Below are positions 402-37,100 of a DNA stretch of 37,100 bases, piece after piece. How positions within the stretch are numbered: position 1 is the stretch's first letter; the number at the start of each line of letters is the position of its first letter. Under the pieces are notes generated by a model, which worked only from the letters and a program-made list of their open reading frames with translations, did not search any database and was not told the origin of the DNA. Location of the stretch: the sequence record NC_049391.1; one strand, 5' to 3'. Source of the DNA: Xuanwuvirus P884B11. A program made the translations under genes and the position numbers.

Positions 402-1448
402 TCAGGATGTGGGCTGGGTGTCCAGCAGTGCATAAGGGTTAAAGCGGATCACCTCTTCGCCAAGCCAGTCATTGATGTGCTTCATGGCCTCCATGACGGG
501 CATCAGCTCGTTAATTGCGTAAACCCGCGCGGCCTTCTCCACATCACCAAACGCACTTTTTTCACCCGGCATCGCCCCCATCAGTTGCGGCGGGACACGG
601 TGCGCAGCCAGCACATCATCACGGGATGCCGCCTTAACATTCATGAACTCATCCTTTGCGGTGATCTGCTGGAACGGCAAAATTTGCACCCCCTCTTTGC
701 CCCCGTTGGGCGCATGAATGAGCACGTTTTTAAACGCACCACCACCACGTGCACCCTGTAACGTTTCTTTCAGGGAGTCCATGCTTTCGCGGTTTACCTG
801 CGCTGCACCGATGTAGATGATGCACCCGGCGTGGGATCCGTTGTCGTAATACAGTTTTCTGAACATGTCCGCCGAATGAGACAGGCTGGCCGAGAGTAAT
901 GCGCCGAGATATTCCGGCATGCCGTAGATTTCCTGGTTAATATCCGGATTCATCAGGTGACACACTTTGCCGGGGCGAAACTGGAACGCGTCCTTGCCAT
1001 CCTGCACATACCACCATGATTCAAGATCGCTTCCGCGTCGCATGTATTTCGCCAGGGCGTGCCGTAATTTAAGCGGTTCGCCGAGCATATTGCTTCGAAG
1101 CTCAAGGAATGCGTTACCGAACACAAACCAGTCCAGCGCCAGCGCCGAGAAATCCTGCCGGGAAAGCAGCGGGTGCGGGATGTAGCAACCGAGTAATACA
1201 TTGCGCTTAAAGTAAAGCGCAGACTGATGCCAGGACGTTTGCCGGGCAGCTCTTGCCAGACCGTACCAGTCCACCGGGGTTTCATACCACCGCCCGTTAT
1301 CAGCACAGTACATATTATCCAGCAGGTCATGCCCGGTCAGGCGATAAGGCCCATCAAATGTGAATGCACTGAGCGACGATTCATTCCTGAGCGCATCAGC
1401 GAGATCAATGCGTGAACTCATGCGCACTTTTTTATTTTTTCTGCTCAT
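402..1448 (-). CDS. Q: Portal (capsid portal) protein, P2 gpQ-like
   Basis: 348-aa ORF; length, position next to terminase P and sequence resemble P2 Q as I recall it; start overlaps the P stop. Confidence 0.85.
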   Translation of the reverse strand: MSRKNKKVRMSSRIDLADALRNESSLSAFTFDGPYRLTGHDLLDNMYCADNGRWYETPVDWYGLARAARQTSWHQSALYFKRNVLLGCYIPHPLLSRQDFSALALDWFVFGNAFLELRSNMLGEPLKLRHALAKYMRRGSDLESWWYVQDGKDAFQFRPGKVCHLMNPDINQEIYGMPEYLGALLSASLSHSADMFRKLYYDNGSHAGCIIYIGAAQVNRESMDSLKETLQGARGGGAFKNVLIHAPNGGKEGVQILPFQQITAKDEFMNVKAASRDDVLAAHRVPPQLMGAMPGEKSAFGDVEKAARVYAINELMPVMEAMKHINDWLGEEVIRFNPYALLDTQPTS

Positions 1449-3199
1449 CAGAACTCCATAACCGTGAAACGCTCGTTTTCTCCTTCGCCGCCAATTGGTT
1501 CGTTAATGACAGCAAGCATGGTTGCCCACGCAAGGTCGCCGTGGCTGATCCCCCTCGCGCGGTCCGTTTCGTAAGTGATAAAGCCGCCCGGTGTTTTCAC
1601 CTTACGCACGGCGTTAAAGGCTGCGACCAGTTCGCGTTCGGCGCGATCGTATTCCCACCGCCCGGCGCGCATTATTTGCAGCATTTTCAGTACCAGCGAC
1701 CGTTTTGATGACAGCGTGAAGGTGTACGGAATAGCAGCAGGGAAAAACCGTTTCACTATCTGATAAACAGCCTCCCCGTTCCCGCCCGTCACATCAATGC
1801 CGATGTGTTCCACGTTGTAGCGACACGTGAACTCTTCAATGACTCTGGCCTGTTCTTCAAACTCCAGCCCCTGAACGCGTCGCGTCTCCACCGTTCGAAA
1901 ACGGCCACCAGGAACAGCCGGAGGGACCACCACGGACACCGCGCCGCTGTCGCCGTTGCCACTGCTGCCGTTTGCGTCATACCCAATCCATACCGGGCGA
2001 TTCCCCATCGGGCGGGGAGCAAAAGGTTTCCAGTCTTTCCAGTCGTCGTATCCGTCAACACCGCAGCCAATCAGGATATTCAGGTTAAATGCCGATTCCC
2101 CTTCGCGGACAAACTCACACATATAGAGATTGAGGAACTCGTCTTCGGTGTTTTCATCACGAATTTCGTCGATATCGGTGTGTTTCCAGCCGTGATTAAC
2201 CACATCTTCCAGCGTGACAATTTGCCGCCACGTCCGGTCAGGGCAGATAAGCCCGTTATGCAGCGTTTTCCAGTCCACAGAAAAACGCTGGCGTTTATGC
2301 GTGGCCTTTTTCTCGTTCCAGCGGTCGCCGTTCCAGTAGGCGTATGCCTCGTGCGTTTCGGTGGATGGCGTGGAGAAGTAGGTGCGCCGCAGTCCGCTGA
2401 GGGTTGCCATAGCGCCAGCCACCTTGCGCAGTTCAGCAAAGCGGCTGACCCAGAAAAATTCATCAAAATAAAAATTGCCAGTATAGGACTGTGCCGACGC
2501 AGCAGAAGTGCCGAGGAAATGCAGCTCTGCGCCGTTGGAGAGGATGATTTTATCACCCCCTTTCAGCTCCACATCAACTTCAGCCGCGGCCTTCTGAATA
2601 ATGCTTTTAAACTGGAACGCCTGACGACGCGACGCAGACAAAAAAATCTGGTTACGCTGGTAAGGTTGCGCCACATCGTCACGCAGCGCCATCAACAGTG
2701 CTTCCTGTGCAAAATACCAGGTCGCCCCAATCTGTCGGGATTTCAGGATCATCCTGTTACGTATCCCGGCTTCCCTGCAAAGGGTCAGGGCGTCAAACCA
2801 GCCCCGCTGATGCCACTCCAGCCTGCTGATGATTTTTTCCCGCAGTGCGGCAATCTGTTCCGGCGTGAAATGATTTTTAAGTTTTTTCGCCCGGGTTTTC
2901 TTTCCTGTGGCCGTCGCATCCGGCTGGTCATTATGCAGTTTTTTAAGCTGCCGGGTCAGCAGGTCTATTTCCTTGAAGTCACCACCTGTTTTATTCTGTT
3001 TTTCAGTAAGCTGGATGAGGCGCGCATCGATGGACTGCGTGACACGCTGCACGGGTGGCGTTTCATCCCACTGATCGCGTTTTTTCCACGCATAAATCGT
3101 GTTCGGGTTTATTCCCATCAGACGTGATATTTCTGCGGGCGGATAACCCTGCCAGTAAAGTTGTCGCGCACGCTGGCGCACAAAAGCGTCCTGAATCAT
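1448..3199 (-). CDS. P: Terminase large (ATPase) subunit, P2 gpP-like
   Basis: 583-aa ORF divergent from the O-N-M capsid operon, as in P2; N-terminal HTH-like segment followed by a large ATPase/nuclease body. Confidence 0.85.
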   Translation of the reverse strand: MIQDAFVRQRARQLYWQGYPPAEISRLMGINPNTIYAWKKRDQWDETPPVQRVTQSIDARLIQLTEKQNKTGGDFKEIDLLTRQLKKLHNDQPDATATGKKTRAKKLKNHFTPEQIAALREKIISRLEWHQRGWFDALTLCREAGIRNRMILKSRQIGATWYFAQEALLMALRDDVAQPYQRNQIFLSASRRQAFQFKSIIQKAAAEVDVELKGGDKIILSNGAELHFLGTSAASAQSYTGNFYFDEFFWVSRFAELRKVAGAMATLSGLRRTYFSTPSTETHEAYAYWNGDRWNEKKATHKRQRFSVDWKTLHNGLICPDRTWRQIVTLEDVVNHGWKHTDIDEIRDENTEDEFLNLYMCEFVREGESAFNLNILIGCGVDGYDDWKDWKPFAPRPMGNRPVWIGYDANGSSGNGDSGAVSVVVPPAVPGGRFRTVETRRVQGLEFEEQARVIEEFTCRYNVEHIGIDVTGGNGEAVYQIVKRFFPAAIPYTFTLSSKRSLVLKMLQIMRAGRWEYDRAERELVAAFNAVRKVKTPGGFITYETDRARGISHGDLAWATMLAVINEPIGGEGENERFTVMEF

Positions 3200-14321: not shown

Positions 14322-14855
14322 TCATTCTGGTTGTTCGGGAAACGTTACTGGCAGGCTGGAGGTGTCTGTAGATTCGACTTTCTGCGCATAGAGCATCCAC
14401 TCGGTTAATTTTTGTTTATTCTCGTCGGAAATGATGCCCAGCCGTAGCTGTGAGTCCCATAGCTGGGTTTTATCCCTGACAAGTTGCAACAGGCTTTGCT
14501 TTTCATTTTCCGCTTGTTGCCTCTGCTCTTCCTCGGTATAAGTTCGCTTTATCACTACGCCATCTTTGAACAACCATTTCCCCGAAATATCAGCCCGGCG
14601 ATTTGCTGTAATATCAGGTAATTCAACGACGCTTGCGCCTTCCGGATTAATTGCTGAAACATCCTTTTCAATACAAATAATAACGCCGTTATGGTCATAG
14701 ACCATTTTCAAAGTGTCTGGCTGGAAATTCTTTTGTTCCTCATACCAGTTTTTTCCATCATCTGAATAAAGCCATTTGATGTTAAATTGCTTTGTTAGCT
14801 GGTATTGCTCTTTTGTTTTAGGGTTGCCAGCAGTAATGTTTTTTAAGTGCATCAT
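14322..14855 (-). CDS. Alternative tail fibre assembly protein (G-prime) in the invertible segment
   Basis: 177 aa on the minus strand; N-terminal 40 aa nearly identical to G, C-terminus diverged; follows the alternative fibre tip. Confidence 0.8.
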   Translation of the reverse strand: MMHLKNITAGNPKTKEQYQLTKQFNIKWLYSDDGKNWYEEQKNFQPDTLKMVYDHNGVIICIEKDVSAINPEGASVVELPDITANRRADISGKWLFKDGVVIKRTYTEEEQRQQAENEKQSLLQLVRDKTQLWDSQLRLGIISDENKQKLTEWMLYAQKVESTDTSSLPVTFPEQPE

Positions 14856-14857
14856 CG

Positions 14858-15553
14858 TTAAATACTCCCCGCGTTATACCACGTCCCATTAATGCAATAC
14901 TGAATTGGCCTTGCCTGTGTTGTATCAATTAATTCATCACGGTTTCCGTTAACTGAACCCGTAACGACATAACCTGACCTGTCAGACCAGCCGGGACCAT
15001 TCCATGTCTGAACAGATGACAGACCGCCAAGGCGAATACCTGTAATAAACCTTGAGTTACATTCTGCCTGCGTATATGCACCAACATCTCCCGCTGAAGG
15101 TTTTCGTGTCGTGGTATAGAAATCTGACCAACCTAATTCAAACCCATAACCATCACGAGCCGACCTGTAGGAAATGCCACCATTTTTATAATTCACACGG
15201 AATTGTACGGCAGGACAGCTACCAGCATTTATATTAAAGTGAAGAATTAATGCAGATGCACCACTAATCAGGGCGTTATATGCACCACTATCCCAATTCC
15301 ATCCAACGGATGTATCACCATTAACAGTATTACCTGTTTGTCGGAGTGCAAATGCATTGACATTTTTGGCACTAATTGAAATATCGCTAGAACCATCAAA
15401 ACCAACTCCAGCAATTTTTCGTGCTGTTTTCAGCTTTGTTGCAGTAGCGGCATTGCCGGACAGTTCCCCAGAAAGGCCACCGCTGAATGTTTGTCGATTG
15501 GTCCAGGTATTCGCTGTACTGAGTAACGGTATTTTCTCCCCGCTTGTGCCGAG
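14858..15553 (-). CDS. Alternative tail fibre C-terminal segment (promoterless; becomes fused to H after inversion)
   Basis: Minus-strand frame is open from the right crossover site down to the stop at 14858, in the phase that continues H across the site; no start codon or RBS of its own at the 5-prime end. Confidence 0.75.
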   Translation of the reverse strand, partial: LGTSGEKIPLLSTANTWTNRQTFSGGLSGELSGNAATATKLKTARKIAGVGFDGSSDISISAKNVNAFALRQTGNTVNGDTSVGWNWDSGAYNALISGASALILHFNINAGSCPAVQFRVNYKNGGISYRSARDGYGFELGWSDFYTTTRKPSAGDVGAYTQAECNSRFITGIRLGGLSSVQTWNGPGWSDRSGYVVTGSVNGNRDELIDTTQARPIQYCINGTWYNAGSI

Positions 15554-15579
15554 TTCTCGTAAACCGAGGTTTTAAATAA
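15554..15579. other. Invertase crossover site (gix-like), right, adjacent to invertase gene
   Basis: TTCTCGTAAACC-GA-GGTTTTAAATAA, close to the Gin/Hin-family site consensus as I recall it; inverted relative to the site at 12876-12901. Confidence 0.8.
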
Positions 15580-15632
15580 TGGCCGTTTCTGGCCTGCATG
15601 GCATGATTTGCGCTTTTGGACGGGAGATTCAG

Positions 15633-16233
15633 TGTGCTGATTGGCTATGTAAGGGTATCAACAAATGACCAGAATACAGACCTGCAACGAAACGCTCTTG
15701 TTTGTGCAGGATGTGAACAAATATTTGAAGATAAATTAAGCGGGACAAAGACAGACCGACCGGGATTAAAACGCGCTTTAAAGCGCCTTCAAAAAGGTGA
15801 CACGCTGGTTGTCTGGAAACTGGATCGCCTCGGGCGAAGCATGAAACATCTGATTTCTCTCGTCGGGGAACTACGGGAGCGAGGGATTAATTTTCGCAGT
15901 CTGACCGACAGCATAGACACATCTTCTCCAATGGGGCGTTTTTTCTTCCACGTGATGGGTGCCCTAGCTGAAATGGAACGTGAATTAATTGTTGAACGTA
16001 CACTGGCCGGGCTGGCGGCAGCGCGCGCAAGGGGACGCACAGGCGGACGTCGACCGAAGCTGACAAAAGAACAGCATGAGCAAATAGCAAGGCTAATCAA
16101 AAACGGGCACGACAGAAAACAACTGGCAATAATTTACGGCATTGGCACATCGACGATTTATCGTTATCACCCTGTAGGCGATATACAGACTGAAGAAACA
16201 ACCGGGCAGACTCAGGAAAATGAAAACCGCTAA
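15633..16233 (+). CDS. Serine DNA invertase, Gin/Pin/Cin/Hin family
   Basis: GTG start with GGGAGA RBS (track offers TTG 15616); LIGYVRVSTNDQNTDLQRNAL catalytic N-terminus and C-terminal HTH, very close to Mu Gin / e14 Pin as I recall them. Confidence 0.9.
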
Positions 16234-21847: not shown

Positions 21848-22004
21848 AGCTTCAGCCCCTTGTATCCGTTAAATGATTCGGCAACAATCATCACCCACCA
21901 CGCGCGTAATCTCACCCCTGCGCCGTTCTCCCGCCACGGCGACAACAAAAAGCAGTAACCCCCTCCGCACGCACATGCGACCATGCCGCACAGGGAGGGA
22001 ACAG

Positions 22005-23114
22005 ATGACCGACACCACCATGCAATTGCTCAGTCAGGGCACAGACCCCGTGAAAATGCCGGATTTTGATATTCTCGCGGAGGGTAAAACGCTGTCAGGC
22101 GTGGCAGAGCGCCTGATGAGCCTGTCACTGACCGACAACCGGGGATTTGAGGCGGACCAGCTCACCATCACGCTGGATGATGCAGATGGTCAGTTGCAGC
22201 TACCGCCACGGGGCGCGCGCCTGACGGTTCTCATTGGCTGGAAAGGAGAACCGCTGACAGAAAAAGGCACTTACATTGTTGATGAAATCGCTCACGAAGG
22301 ACCGCCGGACAGGCTGACTGTTTCAGCCAGAAGCGCAGATTTTCGGGATGAATTTAACGTTAAACGTGAGGTGTCCTGGCATGATGTGACCGTTGAGCGT
22401 GTGGTATCCGCCATCGCTCATCGGTACGGTCTGAAACCGCAAATCAGCGAAATGCTGATGGATATCGAAATCGACCACGCCGACCAGACCGAAGAAAGCG
22501 ACATGTCCTTTCTTACGCGCATGGCGGAAATGCTGGGCGCAATCACCACGGTAAAAAGCGGTAATCTGTTATTCATTATGCCAGGCGGTGGCGTGAACGC
22601 ACAGGGCCAACCGTTGCCATCGTTCGCCATCACGCGCAGCAGTGGCGATCGCCATCAGTTCCGCATTGCTGACCGCGAAGCGTATACGGGTGTACGCGCC
22701 TACTGGCTTGATCTTAATTACGGGAAAAAGAAAAAAGTCAGCGTGAAACGCCGCAAACCGCCAAAACCCAAAAAGGAGAAAAGCAGCAGCCGTGAAGGTG
22801 ATTATATGGAAGGCGCGGAAGGAAATGTGTTTGTGTTACGCAAGACTTATCAGAACGAGCAGGCAGCAAGACGCGCAGCGGCGGCAAAGTGGCAGCAGCT
22901 ACAACGCGGAGCCGCATCATTCTCCATCACACTGGCTCGTGGACGCGCAGAACTCTACCCCGAAATGCATGGCACGGTAACAGGATTTAAAAGCGAGATT
23001 GATAATCAGGACTGGATTATTGCGAAAGCCGATCACACCATTGATAACAGTGGCTTTACCACGCAGCTTGAGCTTGAAGCAAAAATTCCGGAATGGATAG
23101 CAGAAACAGAGTGA
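22005..23114 (+). CDS. D: Tail/late gene D protein, P2 gpD-like
   Basis: Start at MTDTTMQ with GGGAGGG RBS (track ORF starts at 21873, overlapping FI); about 369 aa. Confidence 0.8.
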   Translation: MTDTTMQLLSQGTDPVKMPDFDILAEGKTLSGVAERLMSLSLTDNRGFEADQLTITLDDADGQLQLPPRGARLTVLIGWKGEPLTEKGTYIVDEIAHEGPPDRLTVSARSADFRDEFNVKREVSWHDVTVERVVSAIAHRYGLKPQISEMLMDIEIDHADQTEESDMSFLTRMAEMLGAITTVKSGNLLFIMPGGGVNAQGQPLPSFAITRSSGDRHQFRIADREAYTGVRAYWLDLNYGKKKKVSVKRRKPPKPKKEKSSSREGDYMEGAEGNVFVLRKTYQNEQAARRAAAAKWQQLQRGAASFSITLARGRAELYPEMHGTVTGFKSEIDNQDWIIAKADHTIDNSGFTTQLELEAKIPEWIAETE

Positions 23115-24157: not shown

Positions 24158-24406
24158 ATGGTCATGAATAATAAGCTAAAGGTAATTGAGTTAAATAGTC
24201 TTGATCTGTTTCGTAAAGAATTACTAACTACTATAAAGCCAGAGAAAGTAGAGAAATTACTTAGATGGTATCTTCAATCATATGGCGGTGTTAATTTCAA
24301 GTTCGGTTATGACAGACCAATTTTTAGAGCGCGAAAGTGCCCAAATGAATGCGGATATAATAACATCAGTGAGATATATCCCCCTCACCAGAAAAATGTA
24401 AAATAG
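24158..24406 (+). CDS. Hypothetical protein; probable N-terminal part of a frameshift-split RES-domain protein
   Basis: 82-aa ORF ending 6 nt before the next ORF; contains PIFRARK, positioned like the conserved N-terminal Arg of RES domains. Confidence 0.5.
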   Translation: MVMNNKLKVIELNSLDLFRKELLTTIKPEKVEKLLRWYLQSYGGVNFKFGYDRPIFRARKCPNECGYNNISEIYPPHQKNVK

Positions 24407-24411
24407 GCCGA

Positions 24412-24990
24412 ATGAATGATGATGGACAAGCTATCTTCTATGGCGCTTATAGTATCGGAACAGCTTTAGCCGAAATTAATGCAAAAGAAGGGGATTATGT
24501 TCACATAGCTCACTTTAAGATGCCGGAAAATTCAGAGTCTGGAATGCGATGTTTTGCTATCGGTGAGGTCTTTAATGTGTATCACGGTGTAAATACAATT
24601 TCAATTGAAGTGTTTAATGAAATTCGCGACATCATTAGCAGAATTGGTAAGGACGACATCCGAGCTTTGCTATCATATTTGTATATGGATGCCCTTTCTG
24701 CTGAGTTGCTTAATAGTATCAATGCCCATGAGGTAAATTATATTTACTCAAGAATTTTTTGCCGTCTTCTTCTTGATAAATACCCTGATGTTGATGGTCT
24801 TATTTATCCTAGCGCTAAAATAAAAGGGGCCTCAAATATCGCTTTGCGCACAGAAACAGTTAAATTGAGAATGCATTTAGTTGCTAATCTTGTGTTTAAA
24901 GTAAATAAAATTTATCCATATGGAATAGTAGATTTCAGTATAGTAAAACAAGCCAAAGGACATACATCAGATGGGCGCATCGTTTGGTGA
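24412..24990 (+). CDS. RES-domain protein (putative NAD-targeting toxin family), C-terminal part
   Basis: 192-aa ORF; the frame is open upstream to give GR-MNDDGQAIFYGAYSIGTALAE (GRxN...Y...E pattern) and later DGLIYPSAKIKGASNIAL (PS motif), the hallmark RES residues as I recall the family. Confidence 0.55.
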   Translation: MNDDGQAIFYGAYSIGTALAEINAKEGDYVHIAHFKMPENSESGMRCFAIGEVFNVYHGVNTISIEVFNEIRDIISRIGKDDIRALLSYLYMDALSAELLNSINAHEVNYIYSRIFCRLLLDKYPDVDGLIYPSAKIKGASNIALRTETVKLRMHLVANLVFKVNKIYPYGIVDFSIVKQAKGHTSDGRIVW

Positions 24991-25200
24991 GCCAAACTTT
25001 TAGTTAGCTGATTGAAAAACCGATGCGTCAGTTTGCACTGCATGTGGTGTATGGGAAGCGCGGGCTTGTAGTGCAGGTCATTTCAGAAGAAGCTAACGAG
25101 AAAGCTTAGACATACTGTGACTACTAAACAAGCAGAAAGCCCGTGTTTATGGGGGCAATCCACACAACAGGCGATGTCGATTAGTTAATACACTTGTATG

Positions 25201-25307
25201 AATAGAGACTCATTTTTGTGCATTAAGGAATCAGGCTTTCAGTCATCTTGCCTCTGCGCGAGGTTCGGGCTATCGAACCTCAATTCCTTAACTGAACTAC
25301 ATTGCCC
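25201..25307. repeat. Right ~110-bp terminal inverted repeat of the 1.49-kb element
   Basis: Reverse complement of the left repeat at 23822-23931. Confidence 0.8.
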
Positions 25308-25502
25308 TATCTCACAGCTCTAAATGCAAAAATCCCATGAAACTGTGGGTATTTCATCACACACTGACACTGCTCTACCTTTCTATATGTATCACTCTAA
25401 ACCAGTTAATCAATTGGCACTTATCAACAACAAAAAATCTGATAAAATCAAAATGTTTTGTAACAAATTTCAGCTTGTAGTGTTCCAAAGGAGACGGATT
25501 AC

Positions 25503-25835
25503 ATGGCATTAATCAAATGTCCTGAATGCCAGAAAGAGGTCAGCGATTCAGCATTATGTTGCCCTGCTTGTGGTAAACAACTGAAAAAACTTAAGCGTTC
25601 ATTTTTTGGAAAACTCATTAAATGGGCTTTTATATTTTTTAATATTTTTATGATCTATACACTTTTAGTTGGACTAGGAGGCGCTGATGAAATAATAAAC
25701 AATACCACATCCGATGCCGAAAAAGCTGGGGCAGTTATTGGTACGGGCTTAGGTTTAATTGTCATTGGAGGCTTATGGGTTATTGGCGATATCATTATCG
25801 GAATTTTAGTATTTCTTACTAAACCAAAGGGATAA
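25503..25835 (+). CDS. Small zinc-ribbon inner-membrane protein (hypothetical)
   Basis: 110 aa; CPEC...CCPACG zinc ribbon, then two hydrophobic helices; AAGGAG RBS; AT-rich codon usage unlike the phage core. Confidence 0.6.
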   Translation: MALIKCPECQKEVSDSALCCPACGKQLKKLKRSFFGKLIKWAFIFFNIFMIYTLLVGLGGADEIINNTTSDAEKAGAVIGTGLGLIVIGGLWVIGDIIIGILVFLTKPKG

Positions 25836-25839
25836 TAAA

Positions 25840-26733
25840 ATGAAAAATATGATTTTTACTATAGGTGCATTATTTATATCAATTAGTGTACTGCCTGTTC
25901 ACGCAGCAACTGAACATAAGAATTTCAATGCAGTGCTCCAGTGCCGAGCGATAGAAAACAATAAAGACAGACTTTCTTGTTATGATAAGTCAATACAACC
26001 GACTCGAACGAAAGTTGCTGAAAAATTTGAAAGCAGGGATCAATGCCCTGATGAGAAAGATGATGACAAACGTTTATCTTGTTATGATCGTTTTTTTTCT
26101 CCAACATTTACTCCATCTGTAAACTCAAAATCTAAAACGGAAAAGCTAGTAACAACAGAGGCTCAGCAACCAAATCTTTCTGAAATATCTAAATGCCGAG
26201 CAGAAAATGATAAAGAAACCAGACTAAACTGCTACGATAAACTATTCCCACAGGATGAAGCTGTTCAATCTGAATCACAATTAGAGAAAGCCACAGATGC
26301 AGGAAAATGGCACACGTCCATTACTACATCGCCAATTGATGATTCGAAAAATGTAATTTTATCGTTAGAAAGTGATGATTATATCAGAACTCCATTTGGA
26401 GAAGCTGTTACTCCCACTCTGTTTATAGCTTGCCGAGAAAAGAAAACCGAAGTATTTCTTAGTTGGGATGTATATTTAGGCCTTGAACAAACCAGCATGC
26501 TGTATCGTCTTGATAAACAGAAAGCAGTTGAAAGAAACTGGCTAATATCTACAGATACAAAGGCTGTTTTTTATAAAGGTAATGATATTGATTTCATAAG
26601 AAAACTTGCCAACTCACATAAAATGTACACAAAAATAACCCCCTATAATGAAAGCCCTGTAAGTGCAACTTTCAATTTAAGCGGCCTGTCAAATGCACTA
26701 AAACCGCTTCAAGATGCTTGTAACTGGAAATAG
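25840..26733 (+). CDS. Secreted (periplasmic) protein with three tandem Cys-pair repeats (hypothetical)
   Basis: 297 aa; signal peptide ending VHA-A; three copies of C-x11-C-YD(K/R) (QCRAIENNKDRLSCYDK, QCPDEKDDDKRLSCYDR, KCRAENDKETRLNCYDK); starts 5 nt after the previous ORF; AT-rich. Confidence 0.6.
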   Translation: MKNMIFTIGALFISISVLPVHAATEHKNFNAVLQCRAIENNKDRLSCYDKSIQPTRTKVAEKFESRDQCPDEKDDDKRLSCYDRFFSPTFTPSVNSKSKTEKLVTTEAQQPNLSEISKCRAENDKETRLNCYDKLFPQDEAVQSESQLEKATDAGKWHTSITTSPIDDSKNVILSLESDDYIRTPFGEAVTPTLFIACREKKTEVFLSWDVYLGLEQTSMLYRLDKQKAVERNWLISTDTKAVFYKGNDIDFIRKLANSHKMYTKITPYNESPVSATFNLSGLSNALKPLQDACNWK

Positions 26734-26754
26734 TATATACCTCCCCAATATCAG

Positions 26755-26792: not shown

Positions 26793-27071
26793 GTAACTCG
26801 AAAATGTGGTCATTGCGTGGACATACGATGATATAAATCCTTTTATATCAAAAGATTAAACCACTATTATTTTCCTCAACAAGGATTTTTAACCCTTTTT
26901 CAGTCTCTGACAATCTAAGGCTCCTTTATCAACAAACGCCCATTTGCAAACTGCTGTTTAATCTGAAAAAACATTAATAATCACACAGATAACAACATAA
27001 CCATTTAGACGGGCAATACTGAAAAATTGTTATTCAGTATCGCCCTTTAAGCCGTTTCAGGCTATATAAAA

Positions 27072-28076
27072 TTAATCCCCCGTGGACACTGCGTGGACAC
27101 TTACGCCACCTTTCAGCGGATTAAGGGCCACCGCATCCTGCAGGTAATCCGGTGCAAAATGCGCATATGCCATTGTTTGCTGAATGGTTGCGTGACCAAG
27201 AATCTTCTGAAGCGCAATAATGTTTCCTCCGTTCATCACAAAATGGCTGGCGAACGTATGCCGCAGCACATGTGCAGCCTGGCCTTTTGGTAAATCGGGC
27301 TTAACTCTTTTCAGTGCCAGGCAGAATTCCCGGTACTTCACCTCAAACAAGCCGCCTGTTTCTCTGGTTTTGATCGCCTCACAAACTGCCTGCGAAATTG
27401 GCACTGTTCTCTTCCGGCCATTTTTGGTTTCAAGAAACGTTACACGGTTATGAACTATCTGTTCACCACGAAGCTTACAAGCTTCACTCCAGCGCGCCCC
27501 TGTGCTTAAACACAAAAGCGCAACACGCCAGTAGTCGCCCTCCAGTGTATCGAGCAATAGCGCCACTTCCTTCTGTGACAGGAACGCCATTTCTCGTGGA
27601 GATACATAAAGAATAGAAATTCCCCTTACTGGATGTTCTGCATCCCAAAGACCTATTTTTTTCAGCACGGTAAACATTCCGGATAACCGATTCATGTACC
27701 TGTTAGCAGATGACGGTTTCAATCCTTCAGCTATCTTTTGAGAACGCCACGCGATAATTTTCAGCTTATCAAGATCCACAGCCTGCATATCAGCGCCAAG
27801 CTCATTGATTATGTTGCGCAGTTGTTTTCGGTCTTCTTCCGCCTTACGCCTGTGCTGGCCGTGATACATCCACCACAACTCAAGCAAATCATTTAGCGTT
27901 CGACGATCACGGTAGCCCTGTATATATTCCCGCTTTTCAGCGTTCGCCATGATGTAGCGTTCAGTGGCCACCGCTACCGATTTTTTGTCAAATACCTTAC
28001 GCACGCGCTTTCCCTTGCGTCCGTTCGGCCTGATGTCCAGCAAATAACGACCATCTTCGAGCTTCTTAATCGACAT
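27072..28076 (-). CDS. int: Tyrosine integrase, P2 Int family
   Basis: Start at MSIKKLEDGRY (P2 Int begins MAIKKLDDGRY); C-terminal ARWSEA...HVLRHTFASH...LGHATIQQTMAYAH catalytic motifs (R, H-x-x-R, Y). Confidence 0.9.
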   Translation of the reverse strand: MSIKKLEDGRYLLDIRPNGRKGKRVRKVFDKKSVAVATERYIMANAEKREYIQGYRDRRTLNDLLELWWMYHGQHRRKAEEDRKQLRNIINELGADMQAVDLDKLKIIAWRSQKIAEGLKPSSANRYMNRLSGMFTVLKKIGLWDAEHPVRGISILYVSPREMAFLSQKEVALLLDTLEGDYWRVALLCLSTGARWSEACKLRGEQIVHNRVTFLETKNGRKRTVPISQAVCEAIKTRETGGLFEVKYREFCLALKRVKPDLPKGQAAHVLRHTFASHFVMNGGNIIALQKILGHATIQQTMAYAHFAPDYLQDAVALNPLKGGVSVHAVSTGD

Positions 28077-28172
28077 TACGAAGCCCTCCAATGAACCGCT
28101 CTACAATTTCTCCAGCCTCTTTCCAGCAATAATCAGACCAGACAAAAAGCAGGTCTAACCAGTTTTCTGGCC

Positions 28173-28606: not shown

Positions 28607-28894
28607 ATGAGCGAATCAGAGCTTGGGGGGTTCATTCAGGTAGCACCATATCCACTTGAAGCGGTGCCATATCAACTATTCGCCAAGATGATCGGCCGCA
28701 AGGAATCCACAGTCAGAACCATGATTGACGCAGCAAAGCTACCGACAATTGACTTTGTGAAACCAGGTTCAGTAAAGACGCGTGCATCAGAAAACTGGGT
28801 ATATCTGCCAGCATTTAACGAAGGCATGCGCAAAGCGTTTTTTGAGCAACCGAAAGAACGCCGCGACGCATGGTTGTTGTGGCTGGGACTTTAG
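28607..28894 (+). CDS. cox: Cox-like excisionase / lytic-switch regulator
   Basis: 95 aa; PYQLFAKMIG...WVYLPA...WLLWLGL resembles P2 Cox (PYQEFAKLIG...WVYLPA...WLMWLGL); GGGAG RBS. Confidence 0.8.
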   Translation: MSESELGGFIQVAPYPLEAVPYQLFAKMIGRKESTVRTMIDAAKLPTIDFVKPGSVKTRASENWVYLPAFNEGMRKAFFEQPKERRDAWLLWLGL

Positions 28895-32187: not shown

Positions 32188-35010
32188 ATGACGGCAGAGT
32201 ACATCAGGGACTGGCAACAACCGCGCCACGCAGTGGGGCGTGAAGGAACGGGGATCCCCGCTCCTGAATCCGCGCTTTCCTCCTGGCTGGATGCCTACCG
32301 GGTAGAGAACGAGCGCCGCCAGGAAATGGCTGATGCGGCGTTCTCCGCAACGCCGCTGGGCAACCTGATTAATAAAAGCCTGGACGCACAGGAAAAACAG
32401 GACAAAACCATCACACTGGCAGGAGATGCCAGAAAACAGGCACGCGGCGCGGTGGATGAAGCCATGGCCTCGCTGCGCCTGCTGCCGTCCTATCTGCGCG
32501 ATCCGCTTATTCGCCACCTCTCCTTCCTGCGCAAAAAACAGGAAGCCGATCGTCAGAAAGGCAAAAAGAGCTGGCAGGCTGAACGCTACGCGCGCGGAAA
32601 CCTGCGCAAAATATTCGAACGTCTGGAGCGCACCGATCACCGCTGGCTGACACAGGGTTATCGCTCCCTTGCCGGACGCGAACGCCTGGACGATTTGCTT
32701 TACCTGCCGCAGCTCAACAAACACCAGATACAGACACTGGCCACCATGACGGCGGCGATGTTCAGCAGCACCTTCGAAAAACTCTGCGATGGCTTTGGCG
32801 CGACCGATGGCGAACTGACCATGGATGTAACGCTGAAGGCGTATCAGATGCTGGCCCGCATGGCGTTACACCTGCACGCCATACCTCCACATTATGACGC
32901 ACTGACAACAGACAAAGACCGGAGGAACGAACCGGACACGGAGCTGCTGCCGGGCGCAATCCTTCGCCTGACCTGTGCAGAATGGTGGAAACGCAAACTG
33001 TGGCTGTTACGTTGCGAGTGGAGAGAAGAACAACTCCGCGCCGCCTGTCTGGTTTCCAGAAAAACATCGCCCTATCTGAGCCAGGACGCGTTAAGCGAGT
33101 TTCGCGCACAGCGCGAGAAAACACGCGATTTCCTGAAAAGTTTCATGCTGGAAAATGAAGACGGGTTCACGATTGATCTCGAGACAGTGTATTACGCGGG
33201 AGTAAGTAACCCGGTTCACCGTAAGGCAGAAATGATGGCCACCATGAAGGGGCTGGAACTTCTGGCCGAAGCCCGTGGTGACAAAGCGGTGTTTCTGACT
33301 GTCACCTGCCCGTCAAAATACCACGCAACAACGGAGAACGGTCATCCGAACCCCAAATGGAACGGGGCCACCATGCGCGACTCCAGCGATTACCTGGTTA
33401 ACACGTTTTTTGCGGCGGTCCGCAAAAAACTGAACCGCGACGGCCTGCGCTGGTATGGCATCCGCACGGTGGAGCCTCACCATGACGGCACCGTGCACTG
33501 GCATATGATGGTCTTTGCTCATCCGGAAGAAATCGACAGCATCGTGGCCATCACCCGCGATATTGCCATTCAGGAAGATCGTCACGAACTGGGCGATGAT
33601 ATTACTCCGCGCTTTAAGGCGGAGTATGTCGACGGCTCAAAAGGCACACCAACCAGCTATATCGCGACCTACATCGGAAAAAACCTGGACAGCCGCGCCG
33701 TAGATGGCATCGACCCGAAAACGGGCAAGCCACGCGTTGACCACGAAACCGGAAAATCAATGGCCGAGAGCGTGGAGCGCGCCATTGGCTGGGCGCGTCT
33801 TCATCGGGTCCGCCAGTTCCAGTTCTTTGGCATCCCCTCCCGTCAGGTATGGCGTGAACTCCGCCGCCTTGCCAGCCAGATGGCACGCAACCCGGAAGGC
33901 CCGCAACGGCTGAAGGATGATGCAATGGATGCGGTACTCGCTGCCGCTGATGCCGGGTGTTTTGCCTCCTACATTGAAAAACAGGGCGGCGTACTTGTTC
34001 CACGTAAAGACTACCTGATTCGCACCGCCTACGACCTCGCAGATGAGCTGAACGATTACGGCGAGCAGAGTGTACAGATTTACGGGATCTGGTCGCCGCT
34101 CATCGGGGAGTCTTCCCGCGTGTGTACGCACCCGGATAACTGGAAGCTGGTAAGACGTAAACCGGAAGCGGAAGACAGCGCCCGCGAAAATGGTTTTGAC
34201 CTTCAGGGCGGCCCTACCGCCCCTTGGACTCGTGGCAATAACTGTCCCCGTGTACAGGAAACGGACAACAACGGGACAGAACAGCCGGAAGAACGGCCAG
34301 CACCGTGGCCGCAGCTTCCTGACGGCGTTGACGTGAATGAATGGATGCGCTCACTGAAACGGCACGAACGCCGGGCGCTGATGCGTTCGCTGCGTGACAA
34401 ACAGGCAAAAAACAGCAGTGATGAAATGCAGAACTGGACACAGAGCCGCAAACAGCCACGGCCTTTGCCTGATAACCACGAGTTACTCGCTAAAGAATGG
34501 CGGGAGTCTGCTGAATCTCTCGGCCTGCATATCGGTGAACAGCAGATGCAGCACCTGTTACGGGGCGGCAGTCTGTACGTTGACGGCAGCATCATTGCAC
34601 CGCAGGGATTTGAAATTGTACGCAAACCAGATACCCGCCCGGACAGCCGAATCACGCAACTCTGGCAGCGCCTGAGCCGTAATCACGGCGTAAGCAGCAC
34701 GGAGATCCGCCATAACCCGGTCGCCAGCTATCTGGAACAGCTGGGGGCATCAGACCCCGAAGCCGCCGCACACCTGGCATCCACACTTCAGCAGGACCAG
34801 AACACCATGAAAACCCCCGTTACCGTGCTTTCTGACATGCTGCGCGCCATCCGTGACGCAGAGCACGCACAGAGAATCAGTGAAACCACTGAACGCGCCC
34901 ACCGCAAAGCAGACCTGCTGCGGGGTAGCCTGACCAGTGGAAACAAAAAACAGACAGAAACGGGACTCACAAATCCCGTAAATGAGCAAAAAACGTGCCG
35001 CGATATATGA
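32188..35010 (+). CDS. A: Replication initiation protein A (rolling-circle, HUH endonuclease), P2 gpA-like with long C-terminal extension
   Basis: 940 aa; HUH-type TVHWHMMVF motif; position after the early ORFs as in P2. Confidence 0.85.
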   Translation: MTAEYIRDWQQPRHAVGREGTGIPAPESALSSWLDAYRVENERRQEMADAAFSATPLGNLINKSLDAQEKQDKTITLAGDARKQARGAVDEAMASLRLLPSYLRDPLIRHLSFLRKKQEADRQKGKKSWQAERYARGNLRKIFERLERTDHRWLTQGYRSLAGRERLDDLLYLPQLNKHQIQTLATMTAAMFSSTFEKLCDGFGATDGELTMDVTLKAYQMLARMALHLHAIPPHYDALTTDKDRRNEPDTELLPGAILRLTCAEWWKRKLWLLRCEWREEQLRAACLVSRKTSPYLSQDALSEFRAQREKTRDFLKSFMLENEDGFTIDLETVYYAGVSNPVHRKAEMMATMKGLELLAEARGDKAVFLTVTCPSKYHATTENGHPNPKWNGATMRDSSDYLVNTFFAAVRKKLNRDGLRWYGIRTVEPHHDGTVHWHMMVFAHPEEIDSIVAITRDIAIQEDRHELGDDITPRFKAEYVDGSKGTPTSYIATYIGKNLDSRAVDGIDPKTGKPRVDHETGKSMAESVERAIGWARLHRVRQFQFFGIPSRQVWRELRRLASQMARNPEGPQRLKDDAMDAVLAAADAGCFASYIEKQGGVLVPRKDYLIRTAYDLADELNDYGEQSVQIYGIWSPLIGESSRVCTHPDNWKLVRRKPEAEDSARENGFDLQGGPTAPWTRGNNCPRVQETDNNGTEQPEERPAPWPQLPDGVDVNEWMRSLKRHERRALMRSLRDKQAKNSSDEMQNWTQSRKQPRPLPDNHELLAKEWRESAESLGLHIGEQQMQHLLRGGSLYVDGSIIAPQGFEIVRKPDTRPDSRITQLWQRLSRNHGVSSTEIRHNPVASYLEQLGASDPEAAAHLASTLQQDQNTMKTPVTVLSDMLRAIRDAEHAQRISETTERAHRKADLLRGSLTSGNKKQTETGLTNPVNEQKTCRDI

Positions 35011-35086
35011 AGCGCGCACAAAACAGGCAAAAGCGGGATTTAAAAATCCTGTAACCGATTAATTAATCAACATAAGGAAAAGCGAC

Positions 35087-36046
35087 ATGAAAATTTGTAT
35101 CGACGACGGCTCCACCAACATCAAGCTGGCATGGACTGAGAACGGCGAACGCCGCAACGCCATCAGCCCGAACAGCTTCAAGTCGGAATGGTCTGCGCCG
35201 TTCGGTGGCACGCAGCCCGCGAACTACATGCTTGATGGCGTGCGCTATGGTTTTGATCCGGTCAGCGATCGCTTTGTCCAGACGACCGACACGCAATACC
35301 AGTACAGCGATGTGAATATAATTGCCATTCATCACGCGCTGGTCAAATCAGGCATCACACCACAGGAAGTGGATGTGGTTGTCACCCTGCCACTAAGCGA
35401 GTATTTCGATACAAACGCACAGCCGGACATGGCCAACATCAACCGCAAAAAAGCGAACGTCATGCGCCCGGTGGAGTACCAGAACGGCGAAGCATTCACT
35501 ATCCGTAACGTACGGGTTATGCCTGAATCCATTCCGGCTGGCTTTAAGGCACTGGCTGACATGAGTCCGTTTGAATCCCTGCTGATTGTGGATTTGGGCG
35601 GAACCACGCTGGATGTGGCAAAGGTTCAGGGGCAACTGGCAGGTATCAGCCAGGTGTTTTGCGATCCACACGTGGGCGTTTCTCTGATGGCCGATGCCGT
35701 ACTGTCGGTGATGGCCACTAACGGTATGCGCACCAGTCACCACATCGCCAATACCATTATCGAACATCGCCATGATGAAGCCTGGCTGCGCCAGCACATC
35801 CACAATGACGCGCATTACGCCAGCCTGATGGCGGTAATTCGTGAAAAGGAAGAAACACTGAAACAACGCGTGATCCGCGCGCTGGCGGGTTTTTCGGGTT
35901 ACGGGCGGGTGATGGTTGTCGGTGGAGGGGCGGAGATTGTGGCACCCGCTATCCGCGAAGCCTGCGGAGTTAATGCGACTTTCATCGCGGACGGGGTGCC
36001 ACAGTTTGCTCTGGTTAATGGGCTGTACGCAATGGACAAGGAGTAA
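35087..36046 (+). CDS. parM: Actin-like segregation ATPase ParM (StbA) family
   Basis: 319 aa; N-terminus DDGSTNIKLAW, ISPNSFK, YSDVNIIAIHHAL, VMPESIPAG, LIVDLGGTTLD, VVGGGAE track plasmid R1 ParM almost motif for motif as I recall it. Confidence 0.85.
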   Translation: MKICIDDGSTNIKLAWTENGERRNAISPNSFKSEWSAPFGGTQPANYMLDGVRYGFDPVSDRFVQTTDTQYQYSDVNIIAIHHALVKSGITPQEVDVVVTLPLSEYFDTNAQPDMANINRKKANVMRPVEYQNGEAFTIRNVRVMPESIPAGFKALADMSPFESLLIVDLGGTTLDVAKVQGQLAGISQVFCDPHVGVSLMADAVLSVMATNGMRTSHHIANTIIEHRHDEAWLRQHIHNDAHYASLMAVIREKEETLKQRVIRALAGFSGYGRVMVVGGGAEIVAPAIREACGVNATFIADGVPQFALVNGLYAMDKE

Positions 36047-36050
36047 ACCA

Positions 36051-36362
36051 ATGACGACTCCAACCAGACGGATAAGTTTCTATCTGAAGCCCACCGCCGT
36101 CAAGAACGAAGGAGAAGCATGCGCCTGGCTGGACAGCCTTACACCAGAAGCCCGCAAAAGCGGCCAACGCGTGGCTTTTCTGGCCGGGCTGGCACTTCTG
36201 AAAATGAATCCGGCAGAGGCTTATCGACTGGCTGCATGGGCTGGTGATGAAGCGTTATCAGTGACACAAACCAGGACAGAACGCCCCGCATCACAGCCAG
36301 TATCAACCGCACAGATAACCAGTCAGATGGCCGGAAATATCCGGGCGTTATTTCCTGAATAA
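36051..36362 (+). CDS. parR: ParR (StbB) centromere-binding adaptor
   Basis: About 103 aa from MTTPTRR; RRISFYLKP...LDSL...AFLAGLALLKMNP mirrors R1 ParR (RTIAFKLNP...LDSI...ALTAGLALYRQDP); start 5 nt after the parM stop with AAGGAG RBS. Confidence 0.75.
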   Translation: MTTPTRRISFYLKPTAVKNEGEACAWLDSLTPEARKSGQRVAFLAGLALLKMNPAEAYRLAAWAGDEALSVTQTRTERPASQPVSTAQITSQMAGNIRALFPE

Positions 36363-36425
36363 CACAACATCAGGGCGAGTTCGCCCTGCTCTCCACCTCA
36401 GAACATAAACAAGGAGAACGACTTA

Positions 36426-37016
36426 ATGAGCGAAATCAACTATCAGGCATTACGTGAACGTTATTCACCTGTGCCAGTACCGAAATGCCCTATTTGCGGC
36501 GAGGAAATGTCAATTCAGCGAATATCTGGAGCACAGGTTGTTTATGCCTGCTCCGGTTATGGTGATGATGGAGATTTCAAAATTGGCCGAACTCTTGCTG
36601 ACGAACATTATGAAAAATCACGCGTAACAGTGTTGGATGTCGGGGATCCTGAAGTATTGGCGCTACTTGATTGGCTGGAAACCAAAGACAACCGAATCGC
36701 TGAACTGGAAAAAATCGCCACTGACTATGCACTTAAATTCCAGAAAGCACAGGACGCATTAAAGCATGCCGCTTTGCTGCATAGCAGGACGGCGCAACAA
36801 ACAAATAATTTTGCAGTATCGCTTCCGGACATAAGCGAATATTTCATTAATGACGTATTTCAGCCCTTGCGATACGAGCGGGATGTTGAAAGAGCCATCA
36901 TAAAGGCTGGCGGAAAAGCATTGTGGCAGGAGAAACACGAGGACAGAACGCATCAGTCATGCGATGTAAATTGTGGATGGTTTAGCCCACTGACGACAGA
37001 TAAAAATAACACCTGA
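36426..37016 (+). CDS. Hypothetical protein with N-terminal zinc-ribbon-like CxxC motif
   Basis: 196-aa ORF with AAGGAG RBS; CPICGEE...YACSG motif, helical middle; no family recognised. Confidence 0.45.
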   Translation: MSEINYQALRERYSPVPVPKCPICGEEMSIQRISGAQVVYACSGYGDDGDFKIGRTLADEHYEKSRVTVLDVGDPEVLALLDWLETKDNRIAELEKIATDYALKFQKAQDALKHAALLHSRTAQQTNNFAVSLPDISEYFINDVFQPLRYERDVERAIIKAGGKALWQEKHEDRTHQSCDVNCGWFSPLTTDKNNT

Positions 37017-37100
37017 TCCCCCTCAAACCAGGGCGATAATCGCACATCGCCCTGCTGCACAATAGTGCACAAATTTGCACAATTTTTTTGAACGAATTTT

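Follow-up and report, generated by a model that had tools for sequence, protein, structure and literature searches.

What does a plasmid-type partition system do in a tailed phage that integrates into the chromosome of its host? The question is raised by the genome of Xuanwuvirus P884B11 (NC_049391.1), the whole of which, 37,100 nt, is referred to below as the window and supplies all coordinates. By its map of open reading frames (ORFs) and its Pfam matches, the window contains the whole genome of a P2-like phage, arranged in virion/attP order. Directly downstream of the replication gene A it carries parM and parR, the two genes of a type II (ParMRC) partition cassette. We lean towards the view that this is a genuine, functional cassette, stably kept in one P2-like lineage (the P88/phiSM group) and acting on the extrachromosomal circle of the phage genome. 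The genes concerned are the following.

32188-35010, plus strand: gene A, rolling-circle replication endonuclease, 940 aa (Pfam Phage_GPA, 6.7e-131)
35087-36046, plus strand: parM, actin-like segregation ATPase, 319 aa (Pfam, PDB, PHROG)
36051-36362, plus strand: parR, putative centromere-binding adaptor, 103 aa (Pfam, PHROG, hhalign)

Identity of ParM and ParR

ParM matches the Pfam families StbA_N (3.7e-82) and PF21523, the ParM C-terminal domain (1.3e-68), and is assigned to PHROG 691, "partition protein" (7e-90). Its residues 2-316 align with ParM of plasmid R1 (PDB 1mwk, E 1.2e-92), and the nucleotide-binding motifs DDGSTNIK, MPESIPAG, DLGGTTLD and GGGAE are all conserved in this alignment. 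The protein is thus an ATPase with the actin fold that belongs to the ParM/StbA family and keeps its nucleotide-binding motifs. It shares 46-52% identity with plasmid ParMs. Matches in the plasmid collection were either at least 95% identical, being copies of this phage, or less than 60% identical, with none between, and the phage ParMs form a separate clade.

The true start codon of parR is the ATG at 36051, situated 45 codons inside the mechanically called ORF 35916-36362 and 4 nt after the parM stop codon. The product matches Pfam Plasmid_stab_B (7.8e-23) and PHROG 2515 (1.7e-57). A sequence search of the PDB with ParR gave zero matches. In tblastn against 72,556 plasmids only copies of this phage came up, and none of the matches was a genuine ParR of a plasmid; it is therefore through profile methods only that ParR is linked to its R1 counterpart. 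In hhalign, ParR aligned end to end with the ParRs of IncF, IncL/M and two other systems (probability 98.9%, E 4e-17), the identity to plasmid ParRs being 24-28%. Lying directly downstream of parM in one operon with it, parR belongs by these profiles to the R1 ParR/StbB family.

The N-terminus of ParR is invariant: in the alignment, the motif RRISFYLKP is followed by two helices, an arrangement compatible with a ribbon-helix-helix fold, and this would be the expected DNA-reading part of the protein. The AlphaFold2 model of the monomer, built from a 17-sequence alignment, was unreliable and too poor for a fold search (mean pLDDT 54, pTM 0.37). The linker (residues ~68-92) is hypervariable, proline/glutamine-rich and present as several alleles. 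The C-terminal tail NIRALFPE is conserved, and its N-I-x-x-L-F-P motif aligns with the C-termini of the IncF and IncL/M ParRs; in R1, the C-terminal region of ParR docks on ParM. The ParR alleles agree over their first ~18 and final ~8 codons and are 51-55% identical from codon ~18 on. In some records with a divergent parR (e.g., locus L005, 2752-3066) the adjoining parM still shows 97% DNA identity, and the mosaic breakpoint lies about 54 nt into parR.

An earlier annotation of the window, made from its letters without database searches (hereafter the sequence-only reading), had described an R1-type ParM/ParR pair recognisable almost motif for motif. The pair itself is borne out by the three Pfam families, the alignment to 1mwk and the hhalign result; the closer likeness holds for ParM, with its motifs kept, and does not extend to ParR, which is linked to R1 by profiles and at low identity.

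Conservation and synteny

Among 80 close relatives from IMG/VR, ParM is 99-100% identical; parM is intact in 79 of them and truncated in one, and several truncated ParR ORFs were found as well. With the window copy as reference, the ratio of nonsynonymous to synonymous substitution rates (dN/dS) of parM within E. coli is about 0.05; ParM is under strong purifying selection. Sequences so close are of no use for phylogenetic footprinting, and distant relatives were therefore obtained by protein search and contig look-up.

Four further genera, Plesiomonas, Hafnia, Serratia, and Enterobacter, have P2-like prophages with the gene order A-parM-parR-(cargo)-Q. Their ParM is 54-62% identical to that of the window, its gene is always flanked by gene A on one side and precedes the portal gene on the other, and a Plasmid_stab_B gene follows it in all cases. 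Conservation of ParM exceeds that of gpA in all four pairs (62 vs. 54%, 61 vs. 32%, 58 vs. 48%, and 54 vs. 32% identity). ParM homologs at 49-50% identity were left out of the phage clade, as the one from Dickeya belongs to an integrative and conjugative element (ICE) and the one from Mangrovibacter to an integrated plasmid.

Two features follow parR.

36371-36388: GC-rich hairpin CAGGGCG-N4-CGCCCTG, just 3' of parR, within the interval 36363-36425
36426-37016: Ead/Ea22-like gene, 3' of parR

Past the hairpin, the DNA of 60 loci sorts into 19 clusters unrelated to one another, and in most of these clusters the stem is found again, though the loops differ. The hairpin can therefore be taken as the left boundary of the gpA-gpQ hotspot, at which the variable cargo starts; it may be a recombination or transcription boundary. 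As the cassette constantly abuts gene A and the DNA varies only past the hairpin, the cassette is a fixed neighbor at the left edge of the hotspot rather than shuffling cargo. P2 carries old and tin between gpA and gpQ, and the hotspot is known to contain old, tin, retrons, and other defenses (Rousset et al., 2022, PMC9122126). The slot after parR is occupied by a HicAB toxin-antitoxin pair in the Serratia relative (locus L089, 7450-8084) and by a KAP-family NTPase gene in the Enterobacter relative (locus L090, 6411-7757), both of which fit a defense or addiction hotspot that starts immediately downstream of parR. None of the PADLOC defense models was matched by ParM, ParR or the Ead/Ea22-like protein.

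Candidate centromere and expression signals

The spacer between gene A and parM, 76 bp, is too short for an R1-type parC. A candidate centromere was found straddling the end of gene A.

34944-35054: candidate parC (centromere/operator), a 38-nt direct repeat present twice, putatively bound by ParR
34961-34978: box 1, 18-bp palindrome CGGGACTCACAAATCCCG, in the 3' end of gene A, within repeat copy 1
35034-35051: box 2, 18-bp palindrome CGGGATTTAAAAATCCTG, within repeat copy 2

The two repeat copies, 34944-34981 (inside the last codons of gene A) and 35017-35054, start 73 bp apart and are 79% identical; the 30 matches out of 38 at this offset were reached by none of 300 dinucleotide shuffles. 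Exact matches to CGGGA-N8-TCCYG occur nowhere in the window except at boxes 1 and 2. Among 56 variants of the upstream sequence from E. coli loci, the arms of the boxes are mostly kept and the spacer varies. The Plesiomonas phage has, at the corresponding position, two GCGGGAC-N-CCC boxes at an offset of 72 bp, the first of them likewise at the end of gene A (0 of 300 shuffles), and the best repeat of the Hafnia phage has an offset of 73 bp, not significant alone. Serratia and Enterobacter have instead a 14-20-nt inverted repeat (GGGAAC..ATAGAAAAAT), 26-28 nt apart. Paired repeats thus precede parM in all five lineages, with the 72-73 bp offset in three of the five.

By sequence inspection, R1-type plasmids carry arrays of short direct repeats, and beside these the two boxes make a plausible but different, minimal parC, to which ParR would bind as the adaptor. 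The palindromes were also considered as an intrinsic terminator of gene A and rejected, as neither is followed by a T-run on the plus strand.

A consensus scan of the plus strand revealed no sigma-70 promoter in the A-parM region and no terminator-like site between the two genes, and no Ogr-type late promoter (TGT-N12-ACA) was seen on inspection upstream of parM. A weak promoter-like pair can be discerned by eye: a -35-like TTTAAA (35039-35044) and, after 17 bp, a -10-like ATTAAT (35062-35067), together matching 8 of 12 consensus positions. The -35-like element overlaps box 2 and would therefore allow autoregulation by ParR, as in R1. Overall, parMR is probably co-transcribed with gene A in the early replication operon; in P2, gpA belongs to an early operon controlled by the repressor. 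Since the cassette has the same orientation as gene A, with no terminator before it and no strong promoter of its own, it would be expressed mainly with this operon and would act on the extrachromosomal circle.

Distribution and location of the prophage

Of 5426 complete E. coli genomes, 1361 contain the same DNA, as do 12 phage records. In the complete genomes, 1525 of the 1527 E. coli copies are chromosomal. Virion-derived genomes with the cassette are those of P88, PhiR44_2, Shae_phiSM, Chuche, and 569R5. An identical prophage is found in the chromosome of E. coli M9, adjoining pdxB. Homology between the window and M9 ends near window position 26868 (M9 locus L001, 30330-30540), which places the attP core, or cross-over, there and attB at the end of pdxB; by the same comparison the window is in the excised (attP) configuration. 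The integration module is as follows.

27072-28091, minus strand: int, intact integrase gene (Pfam)
between int and cox: C repressor gene
28607-28894: cox (Pfam Phage_Cox), followed by small early genes up to gene A

In the RefSeq annotation of the identical prophage, the region from cox to parM encodes the gpA endonuclease and small regulators and no plasmid-type replication gene; Phage_GPA was the only Pfam match to a replication gene. A sister P88-like phage with int and parMR has been deposited as a closed circular plasmid of 34,461 bp, pZ1323PEC0009-2 (NZ_CP148288.1), from a cat isolate of E. coli. An extrachromosomal form is thus sometimes captured. The last 12.5 kb of this record are matched at 100% identity by a chromosomal prophage in NZ_CP148378.1, which comes from a human isolate of the same project. 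The plasmid record itself was not among the matches in the E. coli collection, which therefore probably lacks the assembly of the cat isolate.

Other "plasmid" matches were rejected as plasmid prophages, these being an IS26-truncated prophage, a linear prophage fragment, and very large records. The IncC KPC plasmid pC-Ec2-KPC of 228 kb (NZ_MK439959.1, 30763-60068) contains a P88-like prophage truncated by IS26 on the int/cox side, which keeps A-parM-parR and the structural genes.

Phage-plasmids such as P1, N15, and SSU5 have extrachromosomal prophages. Neither autonomous residence nor a plasmid-type replication module serving in lysogeny, the features that define a phage-plasmid, was found here. 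Given the nearly exclusive chromosomal location and an early region with no plasmid-type replicon, a stable plasmid prophage is not the norm. The sequence-only reading was right in placing the cassette after gene A, at the locus where P2 carries tin and old, and in describing Int and attP as intact. Its suggestion of episomal, phage-plasmid maintenance finds no support as the normal lifestyle, in view of the chromosomal copies, including that of M9 at pdxB, and of the replication genes present; active segregation, which it offered as the other option, is plausible. It had further called such machinery unexpected alongside an Int/attP module. This was an overstatement, as both SXT/R391 (PMC4489591) and CGP3 (PMC4446434) combine integration with systems of this kind.

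Comparison with known systems

Three known systems resemble the cassette in different respects. First, parMRC of R1/IncF plasmids (stbA-stbB, type II) has the same order parC-parM-parR. Its ParM contains the two Pfam domains and can be aligned from end to end with the phage protein at 46% identity; the ParRs of R1 and the phage fall in one Pfam family and are homologous in the N-terminal DNA-binding region and in the C-terminal tail. However, the R1 system is carried by a plasmid and the phage cassette by an integrative tailed phage, and ParR is shorter in the phage (103 aa vs. 117-147 aa in plasmids). The centromeres also differ: parC of R1 consists of ten 11-bp direct iterons in two clusters in an intergenic region of roughly 160 bp, whereas the phage candidate is made of two 18-bp palindromes 73 bp apart, partly inside gene A.

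Second, SXT/R391-family ICEs possess, in addition to an integrase, a functional ParMRC-type system, srpMRC, located in the same operon as int; it stabilizes the excised ICE replicating by the rolling-circle mechanism and is expressed only with the excision/replication program (Carraro et al., 2015, PMC4489591). Common to both systems are a ParM-type actin ATPase, a small adaptor, an upstream repeat-bearing centromere (a candidate one in the phage), an integrase, and a usually chromosomal location. The differences are that srpMRC belongs to an ICE, that SrpM is distant from R1 ParM and SrpR has no recognizable ParR domain, whereas the phage proteins are clear members of the R1 family, and that function has been demonstrated for srpMRC, the phage cassette being known from sequence alone.

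Third, the integrated prophage CGP3 of Corynebacterium glutamicum codes for AlpC, a filament-forming actin-like protein, and for a co-transcribed adaptor, AlpA, which binds upstream of the operon; both are induced early and are needed for efficient replication of the excised circular CGP3 DNA (Donovan et al., 2015, PMC4446434). This system is actinobacterial, differs in the name of the adaptor and in gene order (alpAC), and is likened to the phage cassette by description, not by sequence. Together, srpMRC and AlpA/AlpC serve as precedents that support action on an extrachromosomal circle.

Neither the cassette nor the phage-plasmid idea is new. RefSeq names the products "plasmid segregation protein ParM" and "plasmid partitioning/stability family protein", PHROGs has families for them, and a single sentence of Rousset et al. 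(2022, PMC9122126) reports a "putative plasmid partitioning system" in "around a fourth of P2-like phages". Given the same gpA-gpQ locus, the E. coli host, and a frequency that agrees with the 1361 of 5426 genomes counted here, that system is almost certainly the same cassette. The present analysis adds the candidate centromere, the evidence of selection, the synteny outside E. coli, and the location of the replicon.

Proposed function and alternative explanations

Under the explanation we favor, ParR would attach, as dimers, to the pair of palindromic boxes that spans the end of gene A, the conserved C-terminal tail of ParR would capture the ends of ATP-ParM filaments, and the growing filaments would push sister circular phage genomes apart. 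The substrate would be the circle replicated by gpA, either after infection and before integration or after excision. The pay-off may be the delivery of copies to both daughter cells and/or a spatial order for replication and packaging, and not a permanent plasmid prophage. On the strength of intact motifs, selection, synteny, and paired repeats, this account seems to us somewhat better than an even bet.

Several points weigh against it. A literature search found no published experiments on ParMR of P2-like phages, and Rousset et al. (PMC9122126) treat the cassette as hotspot content, not as core. The candidate parC has only two palindromic boxes, few next to the iterons of R1, and the different arrangement of the repeats in Serratia and Enterobacter makes the assignment of the centromere tentative. 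The timing of expression is deduced from signals that are absent, and the weak promoter at box 2 could permit expression in the lysogen.

We further propose, more tentatively, that P88-type phages apply an actin-like ParMRC system to the monomeric circles that their replication yields, the centromere being a minimal one of two palindromes set in the end of the replication gene; besides integration, the system may serve a plasmid or carrier state, facultative and of low copy number, or else the spatial organization of lytic replication and packaging. This proposal is a possible one, in which we place limited confidence.

The alternative that survives best is that of a facultative phage-plasmid, in which the cassette lets the prophage persist as a low-copy plasmid instead of integrating, as already suggested by Rousset et al. 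(2022, PMC9122126). It would account for the closed circle of the sister phage and for the presence of a bona fide plasmid-type partition system. However, this single assembly circle is equally well explained by spontaneous induction, and a phage identical to it over the 12.5 kb compared is integrated in an isolate of the same project. Moreover, all but two of the copies in complete E. coli genomes lie in chromosomes, the phage has an intact Int and attP that are in use, and the early region is annotated with no plasmid-type replicon, the rolling-circle initiator gpA being its only replication gene. We therefore consider a facultative plasmid state unlikely.

Less probable still is that the cassette is cargo for lysogenic conversion or competition, acting for instance by partition incompatibility against plasmids or against related phages sharing the centromere. 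Its location in the gpA-gpQ defense hotspot would suit such a role, and so would the contrast between the highly variable linker and alleles of ParR and the 99% conserved ParM, as this can indicate diversifying pressure. However, the N-terminus of ParR is invariant, and since this is the putative DNA-reading part, the specificity for the centromere does not appear to be diversifying. In addition, neither ParM nor ParR had a PADLOC match, the cassette keeps its place next to gene A with variable cargo only past the hairpin, and the synteny across genera, together with a ParM more conserved than gpA, is core-like.

Finally, the idea that the cassette is a relic without present function, decaying since an old recombination between plasmid and phage, which might be suspected from the plasmid-like origin of the cassette and from its truncated copies (one parM and several ParR ORFs among the 80 loci, and the IS26-truncated prophage on the IncC plasmid), is effectively refuted by the low dN/dS with all but one parM intact, by the intact catalytic motifs, and by the synteny kept across five genera at 54-62% protein identity.

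If the partition cassette is active, a quarter of E. coli strains would carry a prophage with its own cytoskeletal DNA-segregation machine, and the line between integrative prophages, ICEs, and plasmids would be blurred. The cassette could then affect the efficiency of lysogenization or persistence after excision, and it would offer a compact set of centromere, adaptor, and motor in a well-understood phage chassis. A ParMRC system working on the phage's own circles would be the first actin-driven DNA segregation shown for a tailed coliphage that integrates, and the model would be one both tractable by genetics and present in a quarter of E. coli genomes.

Other features of the genome

The genes of the window follow the order of P2, and the P2 hallmarks are present: Q, P, O, N, M, and L; gpD; int-C-cox; and gpA. 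Pfam matches to Phage_GPA, Phage_Cox, Phage_GPD and the integrase, as well as the RefSeq annotation of the identical prophage, agree with this assignment. With window positions 12500-37100 as query, the Citrobacter phage Shae_phiSM showed 96% identity at 89% coverage, and the Escherichia phage P88 about 95% identity over the shared parts, at a coverage below that of Shae_phiSM. The remaining features are listed below.

402-1448, minus strand: portal gene Q (ORF map)
1448-3199, minus strand: terminase gene P (ORF map), followed by head, lysis, and tail genes
15616-16233: Gin-like serine invertase gene
21873-23114: gpD (Pfam Phage_GPD)
24412-24990: RES-domain protein gene, in the low-GC island
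25503-25835: zinc-ribbon protein gene, in the low-GC island
25840-26733: VasI/TagO-like protein gene, in the low-GC island

At 940 aa, gpA is unusually long, the Pfam GPA domain covering residues 179-503 only; in related phages its length is 785-907 aa. The low-GC island (24400-26750) lies between gpD and attP and has a GC content of 36-38%, compared with about 55% elsewhere; it is probably a second cargo or moron locus, and a PADLOC search of this interval gave zero matches. The gene for the Gin-like invertase adjoins oppositely oriented tail-fiber and assembly segments (14322-15196, minus strand). The region as a whole (14322-16233) suggests an invertible host-range switch of the Mu/D108 kind, and in the similarity search phage D108 was matched in the tail-fiber/invertase part of the genome. 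Near the right end of the genome, where the cos region is expected close by, there is a short tandem repeat, TGCACAATAG, in 2.8 copies (37056-37083).

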